NCBI GenBank assembly: GCA_000004985.1
Contig: GG738845.1
Source: Naegleria gruberi
Lineage: Eukaryota
Length of the DNA: 64,000 bases
Direction: 5' to 3' (one strand)
Shown here: one piece after another, positions 3,001 through 64,000 of the stretch
Layout of the letters: each line of letters begins with the position of its first letter
Numbering within the stretch: position 1 is the first letter of the stretch
The notes under the pieces: generated by a model
The model's input: the letters and a program-made list of their open reading frames with translations, nothing else
Database searches by the model: none
Told to the model about the DNA's origin: nothing
Made by a program: the position numbers and the translations under genes

Positions 3001-3445
3001 GAAAAGTTAAATTCTAACAAAAAAACAAATAAATAAATGCAAAATACAGGAAATCCAACCTACCAGACTCAAAACTAATACTCAAAGTCCCATAAATTAT
3101 CGAATAACAATGGAACATCAAAAGTGACCATTGAGGAATAGGCGATTTCACTAACAAGGATAAAATCATCATTGAAAATTGTTCAATTTTGGCATTCACA
3201 TAACTTATCTTATCCATTGGATTAGCTGCAGACCCCTTTGATATATCGGAAGCTACATTGAGAGCAGAACGTGAGTCATCGAGCGAATTCCTTTGCCCAG
3301 TTTCATATTCTTTAAGGACTGGGGCTAAGAGTGGTGAACTGTTTCCTCCTGAGAGTGTATGAGGAGTGTTTCCTCCACTATTATTACTTGAAACACTTGT
3401 TGATATAGCGAGACTCCTCACTTTTTCTGCCATCATTTTGTCCAA
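1..3445 (-). CDS. Large multi-pass membrane protein with a sterol-sensing-domain-like TM block (Patched/Dispatched/NPC1-type RND family); 3' partial (runs off window start)
   Basis: Track ORF 3014..3445 (-) is exon 1. It ends at a GTAGGT donor (plus ~3056-3061, reverse complement); a ~44-nt intron follows, with acceptor TTGTTAG. From there the minus-strand frame appeared open to position 1 on a hand translation that was not checked for stops; it is absent from the track because no stop lies inside the window. My translation shows several TM helices including '...PIGLSILLGGGISGLIILFFIGFGIVEIYNLIMKRAALEY'. This resembles the SSD TM4 motif (GVGVDNIFIL type). A ~400-aa soluble loop is followed by further TM segments. 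Confidence 0.4.
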
Positions 3446-5349: not shown

Positions 5350-6765
5350 ATGAATTTTAATATTAAGAATATTGGAAATTTGTGGGATGAAATTTGTAAT
5401 TTAATAATTCGTCCACAAAGATGTATATATGAACCATCGATTGCTCTTGGTCCTAAATTATTTACTCTCGACAATCGTATATTTGAAAGAAAGGATTTTA
5501 CATTGACAAATTCTAGAGGAAAGACAATAGAATGCTCTCATTATCAACCAATAGAATCACAAAGAACTAAAGAACGATTACCATGTGTTATTTATTGTCA
5601 TGGTAACTGTGGATCTAGATGTGATGCTCTTGATGCTGTCAGGTAAGTTTCAATCATGAGAATCATCATCACCAACTGTCAACTTTTCAGTATTTTACTG
5701 CCATACAATATTACAGTATTTGCTTTTGATTTTACTGGATCTGGACTTTCTGAAGGTGACTATGTGTCACTGGGTTTTTATGAAAAGCAAGATGTTGGAA
5801 CAGTGGTGGAATATCTTTGGTCAACAAAGAGAGTAAGCAGAATTGGATTGTGGGGAAGATCTATGGGAGCAGCAACAAGTATCATGTATGCATCTACTGA
5901 TCAAAGTATTGCTGGTATTGTTGTTGACAGTCCATTCACATCTTTGGAAGATTTGTCAATGGAACTTGTTCACTCATACCAATCTTGGATACCAAAGAAA
6001 ATGATTAAAATGGGAATTAATTTAATAAGAAAGTCAATTATAGGAAAAGCAGGATTTGACATTAGAGCTTGTGGTCCATTGGAGTGTGCAGGTTCATGTT
6101 TTGTTCCAGGTTTATTTGCTCATGCTGAGAATGATGATTTTATCAAAATTCATCACTCTGAAAAGCTCTATGAAACCTATGCTGGAGACAAGAATATGAT
6201 TAGATTCGAGGGTGATCACAATAGTGCAAGACCAGATTTCATGTATGATTCAGTCTGTATATTTTTCTACAATGTCCTAGTTAGTAATGATAAGGAATTA
6301 GAAAATAAGGACATACCAAAGGGTTCAATGGCCCACAAGAATGATGTTGGAGTTGTCACAGATAAGGGAAGACAGAGTAAGTATACTTTTCAATCATGAT
6401 CTAATTGACCAATAATAGTTGCCATTGAAAATGGAGAAGCTGAATTTTTCGAGGAATATTTTGAATCTGATCCAAACAAGAAAACAGCAAACAAGATTGC
6501 AATTCCAAGAGATCCATCCCATGCCAATCATGATTCCTTCCTCCAATCACCTTCCTATCCACAAATGATTGTACCAAGTTCACTAAATGATAAATATGAA
6601 GGGGTGGGAACAAGCGACGAGGATGAAATGCTTTTCAGAGCACTAATTGAAAGTGTAAAGGAAGAACTCAATGTCTGTAAAGATGAAAACGAGAAGAAGG
6701 AGCTAGAGATAAGGCTCAAAGAGCTTTATGAACAAGCCAAAGATCATTCCCTTAAAATTGTATAA
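5350..6765 (+). CDS. alpha/beta-hydrolase fold serine hydrolase (GxSxG 'GRSMGAA'); 3 exons 5350..5642, 5691..6376, 6419..6765
   Basis: Track ORFs 5350..5646, 5656..6399 and 6565..6765 join in frame through a GTAAGT donor at 5643 with acceptor ...ttttcag at 5690, and a GTAAGT donor at 6377 with acceptor aataatag at 6418. The joined protein reads '...YCHGNCGSRCDALDAV.ILLPYNITVFAFDFTGSGLSEGDYVSLGFYEKQDV...GLWGRSMGAATS...HAENDDFI...EGDHN'. This is a typical esterase/lipase/ABHD-type catalytic triad layout. Confidence 0.65.
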
Positions 6766-23320: not shown

Positions 23321-24418
23321 ATGAGTGGATGGTGGGGCGTAGGAGCTCAGTCTTCAATTGATTCAGCCGTTTCTTTGTCTAATCAACAAAAGAAACAAAA
23401 TATCACCTCTCCGAACGGCATTCGTGGATCTAAATCTAACTTGCAATCTGGTGATGTAGAAATTAATGAATTAAAAATTAATTCCATTGAAGATTTGAGT
23501 ACATTTATTCAACAATTTGCTGCTAGTATTCATAATATGGAAAGAAATGTAAAGCACTTGTTGAGAAATTACGAATCATCTAATGGTAAGAATGGTAAAT
23601 CCGCTCTTGATACTCTGAATAATAATAAGGATTCCGAGAGGTTGAGATCCAAAATTAAAGTTTCAAAGGATAAAATTCAAAAGAGTAGAGATGCCATTCA
23701 AAAGGGCTTACTTCGTTTCTCTAAAAAGAAGATGGAATCATCATCCGGTTATGATTTAGGTAGTGATACTGATTCTGTTGCTGGTGGTTTGGATTCCTCA
23801 ATTGGAGGCGTTTCATCAGCACAAAAAGTACAATTTAACAAGTTACAATCTCAGTTTAAGGAATTATGTAAACAATATGAAAAATGTATTCAAGACTATC
23901 GTGATAGTGAAAAGAGTATGAAGAGATCTCAATTGTTTAAATATGGTGATGATGATTTAGATGCCATGTTTTCCAATAAGAATGGAGATAAATCATCAGC
24001 CAAGAATGGTTCTTCCAACAGAACTAAATCTTCCAGTGCTTCCCGTAATAATGGTGACGAAGAAGAAGATGATGATCTTGGACAGCAAGCTCAAGCCCTC
24101 GAACAAAACAAATTCGTCCTTAGTAGTGCCGATCAAGGAACATTGGACGTTGAGAAACAAATCGCCCTCGAAACTAATAGAGAATTGAAAGACTTGGAAA
24201 CTAACTATTACGAATTGCATCAATGCTTTGTTGATTTGAATGAAATGGTAAAGGAACAAGGAGAAGGAATTGAAGTTATCCAACAAAATGTACAACTAGC
24301 TAACGAATATGTAGAACAAGGTGTGGAAAATATTAAGGTCGCCAAGAGTTTTACTGGTATGGGCTTATTACAAAACATCTTTTCTCCTGGTAATATCATT
24401 AAGAATCTTATTAAGTAA
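23321..24418 (+). CDS. Syntaxin-family Qa-SNARE (long Ser-rich N-terminal region); a C-terminal TM anchor was not found in this ORF (a downstream exon is possible)
   Basis: The SNARE motif is 'ALETNRELKDLETNYYELHQCFVDLNEMVKEQGEGIEVIQQNVQLANEYVEQGVENIKVAKSF', with a zero-layer Q in 'KEQGE'. The ORF ends '...SPGNIIKNLIK*'. A GTAATA donor at ~24389 could splice to a downstream TM exon. Confidence 0.6.
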   Translation: MSGWWGVGAQSSIDSAVSLSNQQKKQNITSPNGIRGSKSNLQSGDVEINELKINSIEDLSTFIQQFAASIHNMERNVKHLLRNYESSNGKNGKSALDTLNNNKDSERLRSKIKVSKDKIQKSRDAIQKGLLRFSKKKMESSSGYDLGSDTDSVAGGLDSSIGGVSSAQKVQFNKLQSQFKELCKQYEKCIQDYRDSEKSMKRSQLFKYGDDDLDAMFSNKNGDKSSAKNGSSNRTKSSSASRNNGDEEEDDDLGQQAQALEQNKFVLSSADQGTLDVEKQIALETNRELKDLETNYYELHQCFVDLNEMVKEQGEGIEVIQQNVQLANEYVEQGVENIKVAKSFTGMGLLQNIFSPGNIIKNLIK

Positions 24419-27120: not shown

Positions 27121-28686
27121 ATGGTCAAGCTTCAACTTGTTGCTGTCTTTGCCATTCTTTTGGTATGCATGAGTGCATTGGCTAGTTGTACCTCCTTCAA
27201 ACAAGCTTTGGGAGATTACGTCAGTCAACCAGAAAGTGCCTACTCTTACAAGTTAATTGGTTCTAGAACCATTACTGGAGCAACAATTTACACCTTGAAT
27301 GTTACTTCATTAACTTGGTTGCCAACCTCAGAAGTTGGTGCTGCCAACACTTGGTTCCACTATGTTGAAATTACCATTCCAAACAATTTGAATAAGAATA
27401 ATCATGAAAGTTTATTCTTCATTACTAATGGTGATAACAATGTTGCTGTTCCTGGTGCCACTGATGCCTCTGCCTCTCCAATTTATGTTCCTTCCTTCAT
27501 GTATAGTACTGCTGTAGCTACAAAGAGTGTTACTGCTATTGTTTATATGATTCCAAATCAACCAATTACTTATAATTCTGATCCAACTTTGGCTAGTCGT
27601 GTTGAAGATGCTATTATTGGTTATGGATGGAATCGTTTCATGAGCAATACTACAAATAGTAATCTTTTATATGTTACTCAATTGCCTCAAGTTAAGGGAA
27701 GTAAGATGGCCATGGATGCTGTTGTTTCATTTGTTAAGAAACAAGCTAATCATGTCATTGACCAATTCACTGTCAGTGGTGCTTCAAAGAGAGGGTAAGT
27801 ATATTTTAGTCAATTGAGTCATTTAACATTTTATTAGTTGGACAACCATTCTTTTGGCTGCTGTTGATAGCCGTGTTGCTGCCATTGCTCCAATGGTCAT
27901 TCCAGTATTCGGAACTAAGGATTTCATTGTCAGAACATACAATAACTTGTGTGCTTGGCCTTGGGCTTTCTATGATTATGTCAGTAATGGAGTTACTGAT
28001 AAGCTTTTCAATAATGTTTTTGAAAGTTTGACCGACATTGTTGATCCATTGAATTACAATAGATTGAAGAATATTCCAAAGTATCAAATTCTCTCATTGG
28101 GTGATGAATTCTTTGCTCCGTAAGTTTCTACATACTTTCCATTAGTTTCTAATATTATATATATATATTCAGTGATCTCAATAACCTTGCCTACTCAAAG
28201 ATTAAGGGTGAAAAGTATGTCCGTTTCATTCCAAACACTGGTCACTTGATGTTGAACTCTGACGTCTTACCAGTTCTCGGTTCCTTCTACGCCTCCAGAT
28301 TGGCCAACACTGTCCTTCCAAAGTATACCTTCTCTCACGAATTTGTCGATAACGGTGTTATTATCTATGTTTCAGTTACTAATGGTGCCAAGCCAACCTC
28401 TGTCAAATTGTGGAGTGCCACCAATCCAAGCACTCGTGATTTCAGAACCTCAACTATTGGTGCTGATGTCTGGAAGAACTCAACCTTGGTTGAAGTTAGA
28501 GAATCTGAATGGCAAGCTTTTGTTAGAAATCCAACAACTGGTTGGACTACTGCTATGATTGAATTGACTTTTGCTAATTCTGTCAGCACTGAACCATTGG
28601 TTTTCACATCAAATGCTTTCATTACTCCTGATACTTTGCCATGTAATATTAGTAAGAAGAATTTGCCAACTCACAACATGATTTAA
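27121..28686 (+). CDS. Secreted PhoPQ-activated pathogenicity-related (PqaA/PF10142-like) alpha/beta-hydrolase fold protein; 3 exons ~27121..27795, ~27839..28127, ~28173..28686
   Basis: A signal peptide MVKLQLVAVFAILLVCMSALAS is present. Exon 1 ends '...FTVSGASKRG|gtaagt' and continues 'WTTILLAAVDSRVAAIAPMV...' (nucleophile elbow SGASKRGW). The second intron is gctcc|gtaagt...atattcag; all three track ORFs are in phase. The mature region is Asn/Thr-rich. Confidence 0.5.
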
Positions 28687-28882: not shown

Positions 28883-31670
28883 ATGGAAGTTTTGGATGAT
28901 CAATTATCTTCCTCATTGTTATTATCATCGGAGGAAGACAATTCTTCAAGCTTGAATAATAATGGCACAATAAATAATCAGCAACAACAGGAAGTAGCCA
29001 CTAGTGTAATAAATAGTGAACAATCATTTCATATTCTAGAGTACAATAACAAGTTATTAAATCAATTGGAAGAACATCAAAAAAGTCCGAATGTTATTGT
29101 TAATAGTAATAATGTATTATATCATTCTATTCAATGTTTAATTTATTGGGATTACGAAAATATTTCGTTATCATCAAATATTAATCAATTTAAAAGTAAT
29201 ACTGTGACTACAAGTGTATTTTTATCAAGTTTAATTAATAGATTGGAGGCGGAGTTACAACAATACTATAATAATTATTTAAATATGAACAATAATAATG
29301 TTGTAAATAATGTTCAAATTAAAGTCAATACACCATTTATTAAAGTATATGGAGATATGTATCAAATACCCAAGTACAGAAGAACTGAATTTTATCAAAA
29401 TGGATGTCATTTGATTGATGTTCCTCACTTGGGAACTACTAGGAAAGAAGTGGTTGATAAAATGATGTTAACAGATGTGTTAATGGATTTGAATATTTAT
29501 AATAGACCTATTTTCAATCAATTTATGAACACTCAATCCAATGTCTTACCTAGTACAGCTATAATTTTGTTAACAGGAGATCAAGATTTTTGCCATTTAC
29601 TATCAAGATTGAAATATCAATCAATTCCATCTGTTGTAATCATTAAAAAGGATCAAACTCAACACGGAGGTTCTATGTATGATTCTGATAGTGATCAATC
29701 TATTAACACTTTATTACAAGCTTCAACTTTTTGGATTCCTTTTGAAAATGTCTATAATGATTCATTGAATTTTATGAAATTTGAAAAGACTCGTTTATTG
29801 AATGGTGGAGGAGTTTTAGCATCGAACACCATTCCAACAAACAATAGTGTTTCATTACCAAATAATAACATTTTGACGACACAACCTGTCACCACTAGTA
29901 ATTACATTACCAATGGTAATACCAACAACAATACTGTTAATAATGTGTTATAATAATAACATTTCTGATGAAGATAAAAGTGGGGATGAAAAGAAGGAAG
30001 TTTCCCTTGATGAATATATTGAAAGTATTTCTCCACAAACTCCTAGAGAACTACTTCCAAAAGATATCAAACTTATTAGTTTTATTTTATTGAAATATGT
30101 GGAGCCATTAGAATTGGGAAATTTGAGTTCACAACTTGTCAACTTGAATATTACTCCTAAAAAATTGAAAAAATTCATTGAAGGTTATGATAATAGCCAA
30201 TTTATTGAGTTAATCAAGAGTAAAAACTCAACCAATATTTTACTTACAGATAGGAAGAAAATCTTAAAGTTATTGCCAAATTATGTTAAAGTTACAATTA
30301 CCAAAAAGAAGAGCCTGTTAAATATCCAATCAGCTATAACTGTTGATCATACTGTAATTGATGAAGTTGGAGAATCAAAAGAATATCCAAAATTCCAAAA
30401 GTTTGATGATGAAAATAATCATGAAGAGAATAGTAATGGAAAATTAGTAGAGCCTGCATTCAAAATGTCTTTGGAAGAATACATTATGAAATATCTTTCA
30501 GCACCAAACAAACGAGATTTAAATAGTACGGATATGTACTTGATTTGTTTCATTCTATTGTTGGAAGATAATATGGAGTTGGGAGCTTTGAGCAGCAGAT
30601 TATATCAATACAGAGTGAAACCAAGATCATTGAAAAAGAATCTGATTGAATTTAACACTTTGGGAGATAAGAACGGTCAATTGGTTGGCATTTTCAAATT
30701 AGAACAGAGAGGAAACATGTTGTTTATTGCATTGACAGACAGAAATGTTGTCATGAATTTATTACCAAAGAATGTAGAGTTTACTCCACCTCCTAAAACT
30801 CCACTATCCTTAATACTGAATAATAGTATTTTTGGTGATAACAACCAATTAATATCTCCAAATGTAAGCCAGTTAATACCAAAACAAACTCAATTAGCCA
30901 AATTACCGAAAAAGGTACTATCTGAGAATAATATTGTAGATGCTAGCCCTACTGCCGTGCCATCGTCACCAAGCAAATTAGCAAGTAGTTCAGATAATGA
31001 TGATAATTTATCTGTGGGAAGAGCAAGTGTTTCATCCAGTGGTGCATCCTCTTCTCAAAGTGTTGGAAATGAAAGCAATGATAGTCCTGCAAACAAGGAT
31101 GGAGAGGAGGAGGAATCGTCTGTTTCTTCTGGCAATGAAAACATTGAAGGAAAGAAGAGTATCACCAATGATATCCTGATGGAATTGGAGGATACAGTCA
31201 AGGATTTCAAGGATCAAAAGATGAGCTACTTGACAGTGAAAAATCATTACACCAAGTTGGGATTCAACACTAAACACTTGCAAAGAAAAATTGTACAATT
31301 ATCTCCTCACTTGAATGTTGTTCAAAGAGGAAATGAAATGGTAATTGAATACGACAGTCAAAAAACAACCACTGTACCTTCCAATCTATCGAATAATTTA
31401 CAAGTTTATTCAAAGAAGGAACATAAGGTTGCAACATTCCATGATATTTTGAAAATTATTGAAGATTTATCTTCCAGCTATCCATATGAGGCAGATCTTT
31501 CTCTTGTTGGTACAATTGTAAAACAATTAGGATGGCGTGTTGAAGGTAATATGAAATTGAAAGATTTTCTCCAAATGAATGATACTTCACAAATATTACA
31601 ATTTGACAAGACCAAGAATAATTGGATGATTAAAATCAAAAAGAAAACAAAGAAACAAACTCTCAATTAA
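28883..31670 (+). CDS. NYN-domain ribonuclease + multiple OST-HTH/LOTUS domain protein (MARF1/limkain-b-like architecture); 2 exons 28883..29946 and 29981..31670 joined across a 34-nt intron
   Basis: Exon 1 carries NYN motifs 'CLIYWDYENISLSS', 'DKMMLTDVLMDL' and 'ILLTGDQDFCHLLSRLKYQSIPSVVIIKK'. Exon 2 contains at least 3 repeats of ~90 aa, for example 'VSLDEYIESISPQTPRELLPKDIKLISFILLKYVEPLELGNLSSQLVNLNITPKKLKKFIEGYDNSQFIELIKS...LTDRKKILKLLP' and 'MSLEEYIMKYLSAPNKRDLNSTDMYLICFILLLEDNMELGALSSRLYQYRVKPRSLKK...' This is LOTUS-like. Track ORFs 28883..29953 and 29913..31670 are offset by +1; the GTTATA...AAAAG segment at 29947-29980 restores the frame. Confidence 0.55.
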
Positions 31671-31760: not shown

Positions 31761-33659
31761 ATGTCAAACGTGGACCTCCAACAAGTACAAACCACTACCA
31801 CTAGTAATAAATTAAATTTAGTAAAATTAAAAGAATATGTTACTGAACAATTTAATCATAATTTATTACCAGTATTAGAAGATTTTATTCGTATTCCTAA
31901 TTTATCACCTAATTTTGATAAAGAAGTATTAAGTAATGGACATATGGAACAAGCCTTGAGTTTAATTGTACATTGGATTAAAAATCAAAATATCAAAGGT
32001 TTAAATTTAAATGTTATGAGAATTGAGGGAAAAACTCCTTTAATTTTCATTGATATTGATTCTACTATTATTGGTTAGTATATAGTTATCATAATATTTA
32101 AATTTTAATATTTAATATTTATATGATGATGATGATAATTAATAGGAAAGGAAGGATGGAAAGAAAATGTACCAACAGTATTCATGTATGGTCATGCCGA
32201 TAAACAACCACCAAATACTGGATGGGCTGAAGGATTAGGACCATACGATCCTGTCATTAGAACACGTTTACCTTCTACTTTTAATACTTCTACAACTGAT
32301 GATAGTAATAATAATACTGTTAGTAATAATACTGACAGTAATACTGATAGTAATACCGAAGATAAAAAAGATGAAGATTTATATTTATATGGACGTGGTA
32401 GTAATGATGATGGATATGCAGTATTTTCATCAATATTATCAATTAAATCACTTCAAGAACAATCTATTGAACATGGACGTATTATTATAGTATGTGAATT
32501 TAGTGAAGAGAGTGGATCATGTGATTTACCATATTACCTCTGTCAAATATTACCATATAATAGAACTGAACATATTAGAAGTAAAATGACAGCAGAGGAT
32601 TTATCACTCATTCCATCACATTGTTTATCTGATGATTATAAAGGAATGATTCAAAGTTGTGTTGATTTGGTTATTTGTTTAGATTCTGGTGTTGGTAATT
32701 ATGAACGTATTTGGACTACTATTAGTTTGAGAGGAATATTTGTTTTTGAATTGCACGTTTCTTTAATTAGAGAAGGTTTGTTTTTTTAACTATTTATTTA
32801 ATATTAATTTAATATTAATTTTGTTTTATTAAATATATTAAATATTTAAATAGGAGTACATTCAGGTGGATATAGTGGATTAGTATCTGATTCATTTAGA
32901 GTAATTAGAATGTTATTATCTAGAATTGAAAATGAACAAGATGGATCAATTAAAATTCCAGAATTATATGGAACACCAAAAGAAGAAAAAGATCCAATTC
33001 ATTCTAATTTACCTAAATGGGTAGTTGAAAAATTTAAAAAAACAGTAGAATTATTAGGATATAGTGGAGTATGTGAATCAGTTCCATTATTAAATTCTTC
33101 AGTTGAATTAATGAATCAAGATTTATTAGAATTATTATTAAACAAAACATGGAGACCAACTTTAACAATAACAGGTGCAAATGGTTTACCACCAATTGAA
33201 ACAGCTGGTAATGTATTAAGACCATTAACAGCATTAAAATGTTCAATTAGATTACCACCACATGTTACACCAAATGAACAACTTGAACAATTAGTTTTAA
33301 ATGAGCTCATTAGAAATCCACCCTATAATGCACAAGTACAAATTAAGAATATTCATACTGGAAGTGGATGGTGTTGTAGTGAATTTGATGAATGGTTAAC
33401 AAATTCACTAAATGAATCATCTAGAGAATTCTTTAATGTTGATGAAATTGGATGTTTAGGTGAAGGTGGCACAATTCCATTTATGAAAGTTTTAAATGAT
33501 TGTTATCCACAAGCTCAAATGTTAATTACTGGTGTTGCAGGTCCTGGTTCAAATGCACACGGTCCAAATGAACATTTGAATTTAAATTATACAAAGAAAA
33601 TTATCTGTTCAGTTGCTAAACTTTTAAATGATCATAGTATTGTTAATAAAAAGAAATAA
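31761..33659 (+). CDS. M20-family metallopeptidase (dipeptidase/carboxypeptidase-like); 3 exons ~31761..32075, ~32144..32776, ~32853..33659
   Basis: M20 motifs are present: 'MYGHADKQPP' (H-x-D), 'YGRGSNDDGYA' (GRG.DDKG-like), 'CEFSEESGS' (EE.GS) and 'GVHSGGYSGL'. Introns are G|gttagt...ttaatag and G|gtttgt...aaatag. A low-complexity insertion 'TSTTDDSNNNTVSNNTDSNTDSNTEDKKDEDL' lies in exon 2. Confidence 0.7.
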
Positions 33660-63027: not shown

Positions 63028-64000
63028 TCAATTAACAAAGACAAGTGCCAAAGCAAGAATACACACAACCATTCCAAATAAAAACATGAAAGGAGGTGCA
63101 AATAAATCGGCCACATACATGCCACCAATCAATCGTCTTGTTGCGTATTGGAATCGAATGAAAGAGTAAATGAAAATCAATAAACCCAAAATTACAAAAA
63201 TTGTTCCAATAGAAACCATTAGAATTTTAACTTCTGCAGTATCAGACGAAGATGTTAACACTAAAAAATCAGTACATGCATTCTCTTGAAAACTTACATT
63301 TGGAAACTGCAATACCAATTGCCACAATTGACAATGCAGTTCTAACCCAAGCTAATTGAGTTCTCTCCACAGCCAACAAATCTCTTGCTTCTGATTGTTT
63401 GTTTGGATGAAAGGTCCACCTAGGAATGAAACCCATTAAATAATCAAGAGAATATCTCTTATTGGATGATTGTCCTGTTATTGTAGATTCATCTTTATGA
63501 TGTTGTTCCTTTTCCTCAGCTGAGGGTGACATTATAACGTCCTTCTTCTTATCAACATTAATATCTTTTAATTCAATTTCCATTAGCAAATCATCATCGG
63601 ATTTTACCTCATCCGAAAGGTTATTACCACTTGTATGCATCATGACAGATCCTCCACATTGTAATTCTTCTTCTTGTGTTTCATCTAGTAATTGCAAGGA
63701 TGCACCAGCGAGCTTTGATTTTGAAAAATTCATTCCTGATGATGGTGGTGGTAGTGAGGAGAAAGGTTGTAATTTTTTGTTTTCTTCTTGATTGATAATT
63801 GTCGTTATTGTATTGTCCATTTGTGTTTCATCCGATTTGGGAGTGGTTATGGTAATATCGATTATTGGCAATGATGATAATGAAGTATTGGATGCATGTT
63901 CTTCTGTTGATGATGGTAGTGATTGAGCGGCATTTTGCTTTGAATCTTCATCTTGTTGATGATGATTTATATTTGATAAGGAAGAGCTTAATTGCTCACT
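63028..64000 (-). CDS. DUF202 membrane protein, paralog B (convergent with paralog A); 5' end runs off the window; intron 63261..63297
   Basis: 'FIPRWTFHPNKQSEARDLLAVERTQLAWVRTALSIVAIGIAVSK|LLTSSSDTAEVKILMVSIGTIFVILGLLIFIYSF...MFLFGMVVCILALALVFVN'. A 37-nt intron (gtaagttttcaag...ttttag) lies at the same phase-1 position as in paralog A. Confidence 0.6.

Follow-up and report, generated by a model that had tools for sequence, protein, structure and literature searches.

A frame-split gene of Naegleria gruberi encodes a MARF1-like NYN nuclease domain and four predicted winged-helix domains

In a 64,000-nucleotide (nt) stretch of contig GG738845.1 of Naegleria gruberi (GenBank assembly GCA_000004985.1), hereafter the window, two overlapping open reading frames (ORFs) occupy positions 28883–31670. 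An original prediction, made from the sequence alone, took them for one gene split by an intron of 34 nt and encoding a protein similar to MARF1 (limkain-b1), with a NYN ribonuclease domain followed by tandem LOTUS/OST-HTH modules. The locus raises the question of whether the two frames belong to one gene, and if so, which nuclease and which C-terminal modules it encodes, and what separates the frames. The reading favoured here, to which a probability of roughly 0.6 is attached, is of a single gene for a NYN nuclease with four winged helix-turn-helix (wHTH) domains carried on disordered linkers, the break in frame being most likely an insertion or deletion (indel) of one base.

ORF1 (28883–29953, 356 amino acids, aa) and ORF2 (29913–31670, 585 aa) are both on the plus strand and lie one frame apart (+1 offset), as originally described. 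An A-rich leader precedes the ATG at 28883, and the stop codon, TAA, occupies 31668–31670. The two ORFs are parts of a single protein-coding gene of N. gruberi, as had been proposed, since each of the three orthologues is one continuous protein across the junction. The gene and these orthologues, which were the only three matches when the 34-nt-spliced protein was used as the query of a homologue search, are as follows.

28883–31670, plus strand: complete gene for one NYN-nuclease/winged-helix protein of about 917–928 aa
P0001 (C9374_014058), N. lovaniensis: 1082 aa, 50% identity, 94% coverage
P0002, N. fowleri-like, from Logan and ENA assemblies: 803 aa, 52% identity, 82% coverage
P0003 (ABK040_009020), Willaertia magna: 1124 aa, 40% identity, 41% coverage

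The N. lovaniensis and W. magna proteins are true orthologues with the same domain order, the former bearing the UniRef name “NYN domain-containing protein”. The linker that joins the NYN domain to the first C-terminal domain is unbroken in the genomic DNA of the N. lovaniensis gene, unlike the N. gruberi copy, and likewise in the N. fowleri-like contigs, within their 803-aa ORF. Translated comparison (tblastx) gave conserved blocks at 29303–29815, 29997–30314, 30405–30818, 31173–31370 and 31410–31643, with no conservation in the linker at 29816–29996, where the frame break lies. ORF2 runs uninterrupted for 1.7 kb in a genome of 32% G+C, a figure that also holds for the window, and shares 56% identity with its orthologues. 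Among 15 billion proteins there was no exact match to ORF1, to ORF2, to ORF2 from its second methionine, or to the 34-nt-spliced product of 917 aa, and the homologue search returned no N. gruberi protein model for the gene; on these two grounds the gene seems to lack an annotation in the reference proteome of N. gruberi.

The protein's N-terminal third is supported as a NYN domain (LK/limkain-b1-type, PIN-like) whose match is specifically to MARF1, in agreement with the original prediction. Its features are listed here, with residues numbered along the protein.

28883–29113, plus strand: N-terminal low-complexity region rich in serine, asparagine and glutamine, poorly conserved, of variable length and sequence in the alignment, and of low predicted local distance difference test (pLDDT) score in the modelled part (from aa 47)
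29114–29800, plus strand: NYN/LK-type (PIN-like) ribonuclease domain, from Pfam, hhalign, AlphaFold2 (AF2) and Foldseek
29147–29161, plus strand: WDYEN motif, where beta1 ends, with D90 and N93 corresponding to MARF1 D178 and N181
29348–29362, plus strand: YGDMY motif, D158 corresponding to MARF1 D215, invariant in 4/4 orthologues
29450–29467, plus strand: VVDKMM motif (aa 190–195), D192 corresponding to MARF1 D246, invariant
29573–29590, plus strand: TGDQDF motif, T231 and D233 (plus D235) corresponding to MARF1 S270 and D272, invariant

The Pfam profile PF01936 matches aa 87–254 with E=4.5e-5 and 24.4 bits, where the gathering cutoff is 24.2. An alignment of the Naegleria and Willaertia NYN domains was compared by hhalign with an alignment of 20 LK-nuclease (DUF88) sequences that Anantharaman et al. 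2010 give in their supplement (PMC2848206), and matched it with a probability of 97.3% (E=1.7e-11, 88 columns). The AF2 model of the domain has a predicted template modelling score (pTM) of 0.70, and the top five Foldseek matches to it in the PDB are all MARF1 NYN structures (6fdl and 5yaa; E=1.7e-6 to 6.1e-5, target-based TM scores of 0.79–0.81), which are also the only matches at E≤1e-3, the following one having E=0.017. At about 230 aa the domain is longer than that of MARF1 (about 150 aa), with some 80 aa of lineage-specific insertions.

The NYN motifs named in the original prediction were all recovered, namely WDYEN at aa 89–93, VVDKMMLTDVLMDL from aa 190, and LLTGDQDFCHLLSRL with TGDQDF at aa 231–236. 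WDYEN is like the “FWDIEN” of the LK-nuclease alignment and does not vary among those three orthologous sequences that include it, P0002 beginning downstream; its correspondence to MARF1 is placed by the motif alone, as it falls outside the local hhalign alignment. That alignment pairs “vYGDm” with “aY.D” and “VCDIS”, “KEVVDKMM” with “KNAADDKL”, and “ILLTGDQDF” with “vLiSgD.DF”. Each of the four acidic positions used by MARF1 for catalysis is preserved, as D90, D158, D192 and D233 (the first assigned by motif and the other three by hhalign), together with the helper residues, here N93 and T231. In mouse MARF1, D178, D215, D246 and D272 are required for the cleavage of single-stranded RNA (PMC6217404). 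The NYN domain of N. gruberi is, with good confidence, predicted to be an active metal-dependent ribonuclease domain.

Within the same domain, the N. lovaniensis orthologue (L001:6001–9303) carries its single intron, of 54 nt (GTACGT...TTAG), between the sequences FIKV and YGDM. N. gruberi is without this intron, which implies the gain or loss of one in the catalytic domain between the two Naegleria species. The W. magna protein has a large insertion of asparagine and glutamine repeats in its NYN domain.

Beyond the NYN domain, AF2 modelling of the ORF2 part of the protein, from an alignment of four sequences, gave four compact domains with pLDDT values of 80–92, separated by linkers with values below 50. 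All four are modelled with the same winged-helix topology, helix-strand-helix-helix-strand-strand (alpha1-beta1-alpha2-alpha3-beta2-beta3). They are designated A to D, with residues counted along the ORF2 part.

29991–30296, plus strand: winged-helix domain A, residues 1–107, about 100–110 aa, pLDDT 80–90
30303–30458, plus strand: A-to-B linker, the shorter one, residues 108–159, pLDDT <50, poorly conserved
30459–30794, plus strand: winged-helix domain B, residues 160–271, about 100–110 aa, pLDDT 81–88, a paralogous repeat of A
30795–31148, plus strand: B-to-C linker, long, disordered and rich in serine, asparagine and glutamate, residues 272–389, pLDDT <50, poorly conserved
31149–31367, plus strand: winged-helix domain C, residues 390–462, about 72 aa, pLDDT 81–92, conserved in all orthologues
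31422–31646, plus strand: winged-helix domain D, residues 481–555, about 74 aa, pLDDT 82–87, with a LOTUS-like alpha3 motif, G-x-MKLKDFLQ

Domains A and B have an additional helix at either end and are clear paralogues, with 39% identity and an hhalign probability of 98.8%, while hhalign detected no significant sequence similarity of C and D to A, to B or to each other. Where at least three repeats of about 90 aa had been expected, the models show four folded domains (of about 70–110 aa), of which only A and B are repeats of one another in sequence. The C-terminal domains, like the protein as a whole, are known only from Naegleria and Willaertia. In the alignment, W. magna seemingly lacks domain B and has low-complexity sequence rich in serine, threonine and asparagine in its place.

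Whether these four domains are LOTUS/OST-HTH domains, as the original prediction had it, is a separate matter, and one in which LOTUS membership is not established, every sequence-based test having failed. The Pfam profile PF12872 had no match on ORF2 at E≤1, and on 11 isolated units from three species it gave only noise up to E≤10, the outcome named beforehand as refuting this part of the prediction, which is not supported. By hhalign, units A, B, A+B, C and D scored a probability of 0.3–15% against an alignment of 49 OST-HTH sequences taken from the 2010 supplement (PMC2848206), whereas ten known LOTUS domains, bacterial and apicomplexan ones included, scored 80–98% in the same test when left out of the alignment as controls. 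The strongest of these signals, that of domain D, is insignificant (15% over 19 columns). A Foldseek search of the PDB with the four-domain C-terminal model returned generic winged-helix matches, none at E≤1e-3, and no LOTUS structure among the top 50. When a profile of the C-terminal region was run against 1.84e9 representative proteins, only the two known orthologues were recovered, along with a spurious tandem-repeat protein (P0006).

On the structural side, the first LOTUS domain of MARF1 (LOTUS1) superposes at 1.7 Å on one of the winged-helix modules. The winged-helix fold seen in all four models is, however, common to all wHTH proteins, and is necessary but not sufficient for LOTUS; the modelled fold is compatible with LOTUS without being specific to it. 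That the four domains are nonetheless true LOTUS/OST-HTH domains, extremely diverged, and the protein a member of the ancient LK-nuclease plus OST-HTH family, is given a little less than an even chance, the alternative being an unrelated winged-helix family. The domain context is strongly suggestive, since members of this nuclease family stereotypically join a LK-type NYN domain to OST-HTH (PMC2848206); in alpha3, the motifs KLKKFIE and MKLKDFLQ are reminiscent of the LOTUS pattern “G[FY]xKLxDFL”; and OST-HTH domains can, according to the authors who described DNE1, degenerate past recognition (bioRxiv 10.1101/2021.10.01.462782). Set against this are the silence of PF12872 on isolated units even at E≤10, the gulf between the hhalign scores of the units and those of the left-out LOTUS domains, the lack of a LOTUS structure in the Foldseek top 50, and the search of 1.84e9 proteins, which links the region to nothing outside Heterolobosea.

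Comparison with characterised systems places the protein more closely. Like MARF1 of animals, which comprises a NYN domain, two RRM and eight LOTUS domains, it has an N-terminal LK-type NYN domain, with the four catalytic aspartates and the asparagine and serine/threonine helper residues conserved, and small winged-helix modules arrayed C-terminal to the nuclease; unlike MARF1, it has no RRM domains according to Pfam, and four wHTH modules rather than eight, none of them recognisable as OST-HTH by sequence. Orthology to MARF1 was not recovered, the searches of the protein collection returning only heterolobosean proteins, from Naegleria and Willaertia. In MARF1 the LOTUS array is required for RNase activity, that is, for single-stranded RNA cleavage (PMC6217404).

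The closest architecture is that of DNE1 (DCP1-associated NYN endoribonuclease 1) of streptophytes, which likewise has an N-terminal NYN domain, a variable linker and tandem C-terminal wHTH domains, without RRM. DNE1 consists of a NYN and two OST-HTH domains, has DCP1 as a partner and is found in P-bodies, and its authors left open whether it shares ancestry with MARF1 (bioRxiv 10.1101/2021.10.01.462782). UPF1 is another partner of DNE1. DNE1 differs in that its modules are recognisable as OST-HTH, whereas in the Naegleria protein the modules number four and the low-complexity linkers are long. With the LK-nuclease (DUF88/PF01936) plus OST-HTH proteins of Anantharaman, Zhang and Aravind (2010), the Naegleria protein shares the nuclease family and the order of nuclease first and wHTH second; its C-terminal domains, by contrast, are unmatched to the OST-HTH alignment of that study, and Heterolobosea are missing from the list of organisms surveyed there (PMC2848206). 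The original prediction had called the architecture unusual for a fungal-like genome; LK-nuclease plus OST-HTH is not unusual, being the stereotypic combination among bacteria and in many eukaryotes (PMC2848206).

What, then, separates the two frames? Several candidates have been put forward or found within or around the interval in which the change must lie, all on the plus strand.

29877–29953, plus strand: zone open in both frames, which must hold the +1 change; it lies in the non-conserved, asparagine-rich linker and ends with the ORF1 stop codon, TAA, at 29951–29953
29947–29980, plus strand: proposed 34-nt intron, GTTATA...AAAAG, judged unlikely
29916–29973, plus strand: alternative intron, 58 nt, GTAATA..GAAG
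29898–29973, plus strand: alternative intron, 76 nt
29936–29993, plus strand: alternative intron, 58 nt
29847–29898, plus strand: alternative intron, 52 nt, GTGTTT..CTAG

The explanation that survives best is a one-base indel near 29945–29950, due to a mistake in the assembly or specific to one allele, which is considered probable. Dropping the T at 29948 gives ...NNV-YNNNISDEDKSGDEKKEV, and dropping one base near 29948 gives ...TVNNV-YNNNISDEDKSGDEKKEVSLDEY..... In frame 0, the downstream frame, the segment at 29947–29980 reads NNNISDEDKS and is followed by GDEKKEV, a plausible coding sequence of the kind natural to a linker.

Candidate introns can be measured against eight comparison introns, seven from the window (four corroborated, three resting on continuity of frame) and one annotated in N. 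lovaniensis.

32074–32145: 72 nt, GTTAGT..ATAG, spliced product equal to the RefSeq protein
32776–32853: 78 nt, GTTTGT..ATAG, spliced product equal to the RefSeq protein
27795–27837: 43 nt, GTAAGT..TTAG, spliced product giving one continuous full-length PF10142 match (E=1.9e-94)
28120–28172: 53 nt, GTAAGT..TCAG, within the same continuous PF10142 match
6377–6418, plus strand: 42 nt, GTNNGT..YAG, frame continuity only
63261–63297, minus strand: 37 nt, GTNNGT..YAG, frame continuity only
3014–3063, minus strand: 50 nt, GTNNGT..YAG, frame continuity only
N. lovaniensis orthologue: 54 nt, GTACGT..TTAG, annotated

All eight have the form GTNNGT...YAG, with G at +5 and T at +6, and lengths of 37, 42, 43, 50, 53, 54, 72 and 78 nt, although the three supported by frame continuity were picked by a scan for which GTNNGT and YAG were prerequisites and are not independent tests of this consensus. 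These three candidates, of 42, 37 and 50 nt, have strong GTAAGT/GTAGGT...TAG signals, and the sample suggests that introns of about 40 nt are common in the N. gruberi genome.

Measured in this way, a 34-nt spliceosomal intron at 29947–29980 is unlikely to be what joins the ORFs. Its deletion does produce one open frame of 917 aa, since it has GT...AG ends and a length of 1 modulo 3, but the frame is restored equally well by over 60 further GT...AG pairs of the interval, so the exact rejoining that recommended it is a chance expectation. It has a branch-like TTCTGAT 12 nt from its 3' end, a G+C content of about 21%, as in the local introns, and the precedent of very short N. gruberi introns (37–43 nt). 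Its donor, however, has neither the G at +5 nor the T at +6 found in 8/8 comparison introns; its acceptor is AAG, which occurs in 0/8 of them, rather than YAG; and at 34 nt it is shorter than every one (37–78 nt). The orthologues have no intron at the position, although a lineage-specific intron would still be compatible with this; the segment itself reads as natural coding sequence in frame 0; and the protein collection contains neither the 917-aa product nor any N. gruberi protein matching the gene. The intron of the original prediction is not supported.

A different, non-canonical intron fares slightly worse and is also thought improbable. The four alternatives listed above all restore an open frame with lengths inside the local range, yet none has G at +5 and all but one use an AAG acceptor, in keeping with the permissive interval, where five of the six AG acceptors are AAG; over 29700–29955, within the 250 nt upstream of the ORF1 stop, every GT lacks G at +5. 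The exception, the 52-nt alternative, places a hydrophobic stretch, ITLPMVIPTTILLIMCY, out of character in the linker.

Least probable of the three is a real frameshift, with ORF1 yielding a truncated, NYN-only protein and ORF2 either translated separately or a recent pseudogene remnant. The sequence as given does have a stop at 29951–29953, ORF2 has an ATG at 29913, and the collection holds no gene model for the locus. Nevertheless, that ATG lies inside ORF1 without room for a promoter and leads into a hydrophobic peptide that appears out of frame, and all three orthologues are fused. In this AT-rich genome ORF2 is, moreover, unbroken for 1.7 kb, and strong conservation marks its four domains against species whose overall identity is about 50%; from this it is argued that ORF2 is translated and under selection. 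Programmed +1 ribosomal frameshifting was set aside without test, the break lying in a non-conserved linker through which the orthologues read straight, and a prokaryotic or defence-system reading is ruled out by a eukaryotic nuclear gene lying between intron-containing N. gruberi genes.

Several points weigh against the favoured reading of a single NYN and wHTH gene with a one-base indel. The PF01936 match clears its cutoff by 0.2 bits, and the orthologues P0001 and P0003 fall under it (20.8 and 16.8 bits). HMMER profile searches of PDB sequences, with ORF2 and with a full-length profile of four sequences, gave nothing relevant even at E≤10, and no match to the MARF1 NYN and LOTUS entries included among those chains. 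Both AF2 models rest on four-sequence alignments and have mean pLDDT values of 65–69. As there is no LOTUS-specific signal, an RNA-binding role for the C-terminus would rest on analogy. Genomic sequence does not distinguish the indel from a short, non-canonical intron, and the sample of local introns, eight in all, is a small one. The N. gruberi reference, finally, is a Sanger assembly, a type in which indel errors are uncommon.

The surrounding genes bear on the source of the window, which the original prediction had called a fungal-like genome. It is instead from N. gruberi, of the Heterolobosea, two of the encoded proteins being identical to XP_002683328.1 and XP_002683331.1. The first of these is a syntaxin (23321–24415, plus strand; accession EFC50584), whose sequence cluster includes P0005, a protein of at least 90% identity from a 4.7 kb contig of an ENA assembly, indicating a N. 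gruberi-like organism in a public assembly. The second is the downstream neighbour of the NYN gene (31761–33659, plus strand; EFC50587), a three-exon M20/M25/M40 peptidase gene whose reconstruction is identical to the reference protein; its introns of 72 and 78 nt are extremely AT-rich, and it has a low-complexity insertion rich in asparagine, threonine and aspartate. The upstream neighbour (27121–28686, plus strand) is a three-exon PhoPQ-activated pathogenicity-related gene (PF10142) with very short introns. Its spliced product of 489 aa has a full-length Pfam match and is identical to no protein of the collection; the reference model of this gene probably differs or is missing. Comparison of the window with the N. 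lovaniensis locus matched only the NYN gene itself, so the neighbours gave no further conserved introns; there, about 1.2 kb upstream of the orthologue, a gene for a DDE_3 (PF13358) transposase is present (L001:3707–4777, minus strand).

How the protein might work can be sketched by analogy with MARF1 and DNE1. The NYN domain would act as an endoribonuclease, cleaving single-stranded RNA by means of Mg2+ or Mn2+ held by D90, D158, D192 and D233, and the wHTH array may bind the substrate RNA, recruit partner proteins or decay factors, or both. The protein could then act as a cytoplasmic mRNA-decay nuclease, and its low-complexity linkers may favour localisation to granules.

For specialists the protein may hold little surprise, as its architecture is the commonest for the nuclease family and the N. 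lovaniensis orthologue already carries a NYN-domain label. The locus nevertheless points to a place where the N. gruberi reference is likely to contain an error of assembly or annotation, with the one-base frame problem the probable cause of the missing annotation. It also presents four small domains, predicted to fold confidently as winged helices, that LOTUS models miss and that could be used to widen those models. The protein is a plausible deep-branching MARF1/DNE1-like nuclease with winged-helix modules that had gone unrecognised. It is proposed, tentatively and at somewhat under even odds, that Heterolobosea (Discoba) possess a mRNA-decay endonuclease of the MARF1/DNE1 type with a lineage-specific winged-helix array, made up either of diverged LOTUS domains or of independent replacements. 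Were this true, NYN endoribonucleases of this type would also be present in Discoba, a deep eukaryotic branch not included in the 2010 OST-HTH survey, and this would bear on the ancestry of MARF1 and DNE1. If the array is LOTUS diverged beyond sequence detection, the combination of NYN and wHTH in a decay nuclease would reach back towards the last eukaryotic common ancestor; if it is an independent replacement, the design of a nuclease with tandem wHTH domains would have been reinvented.

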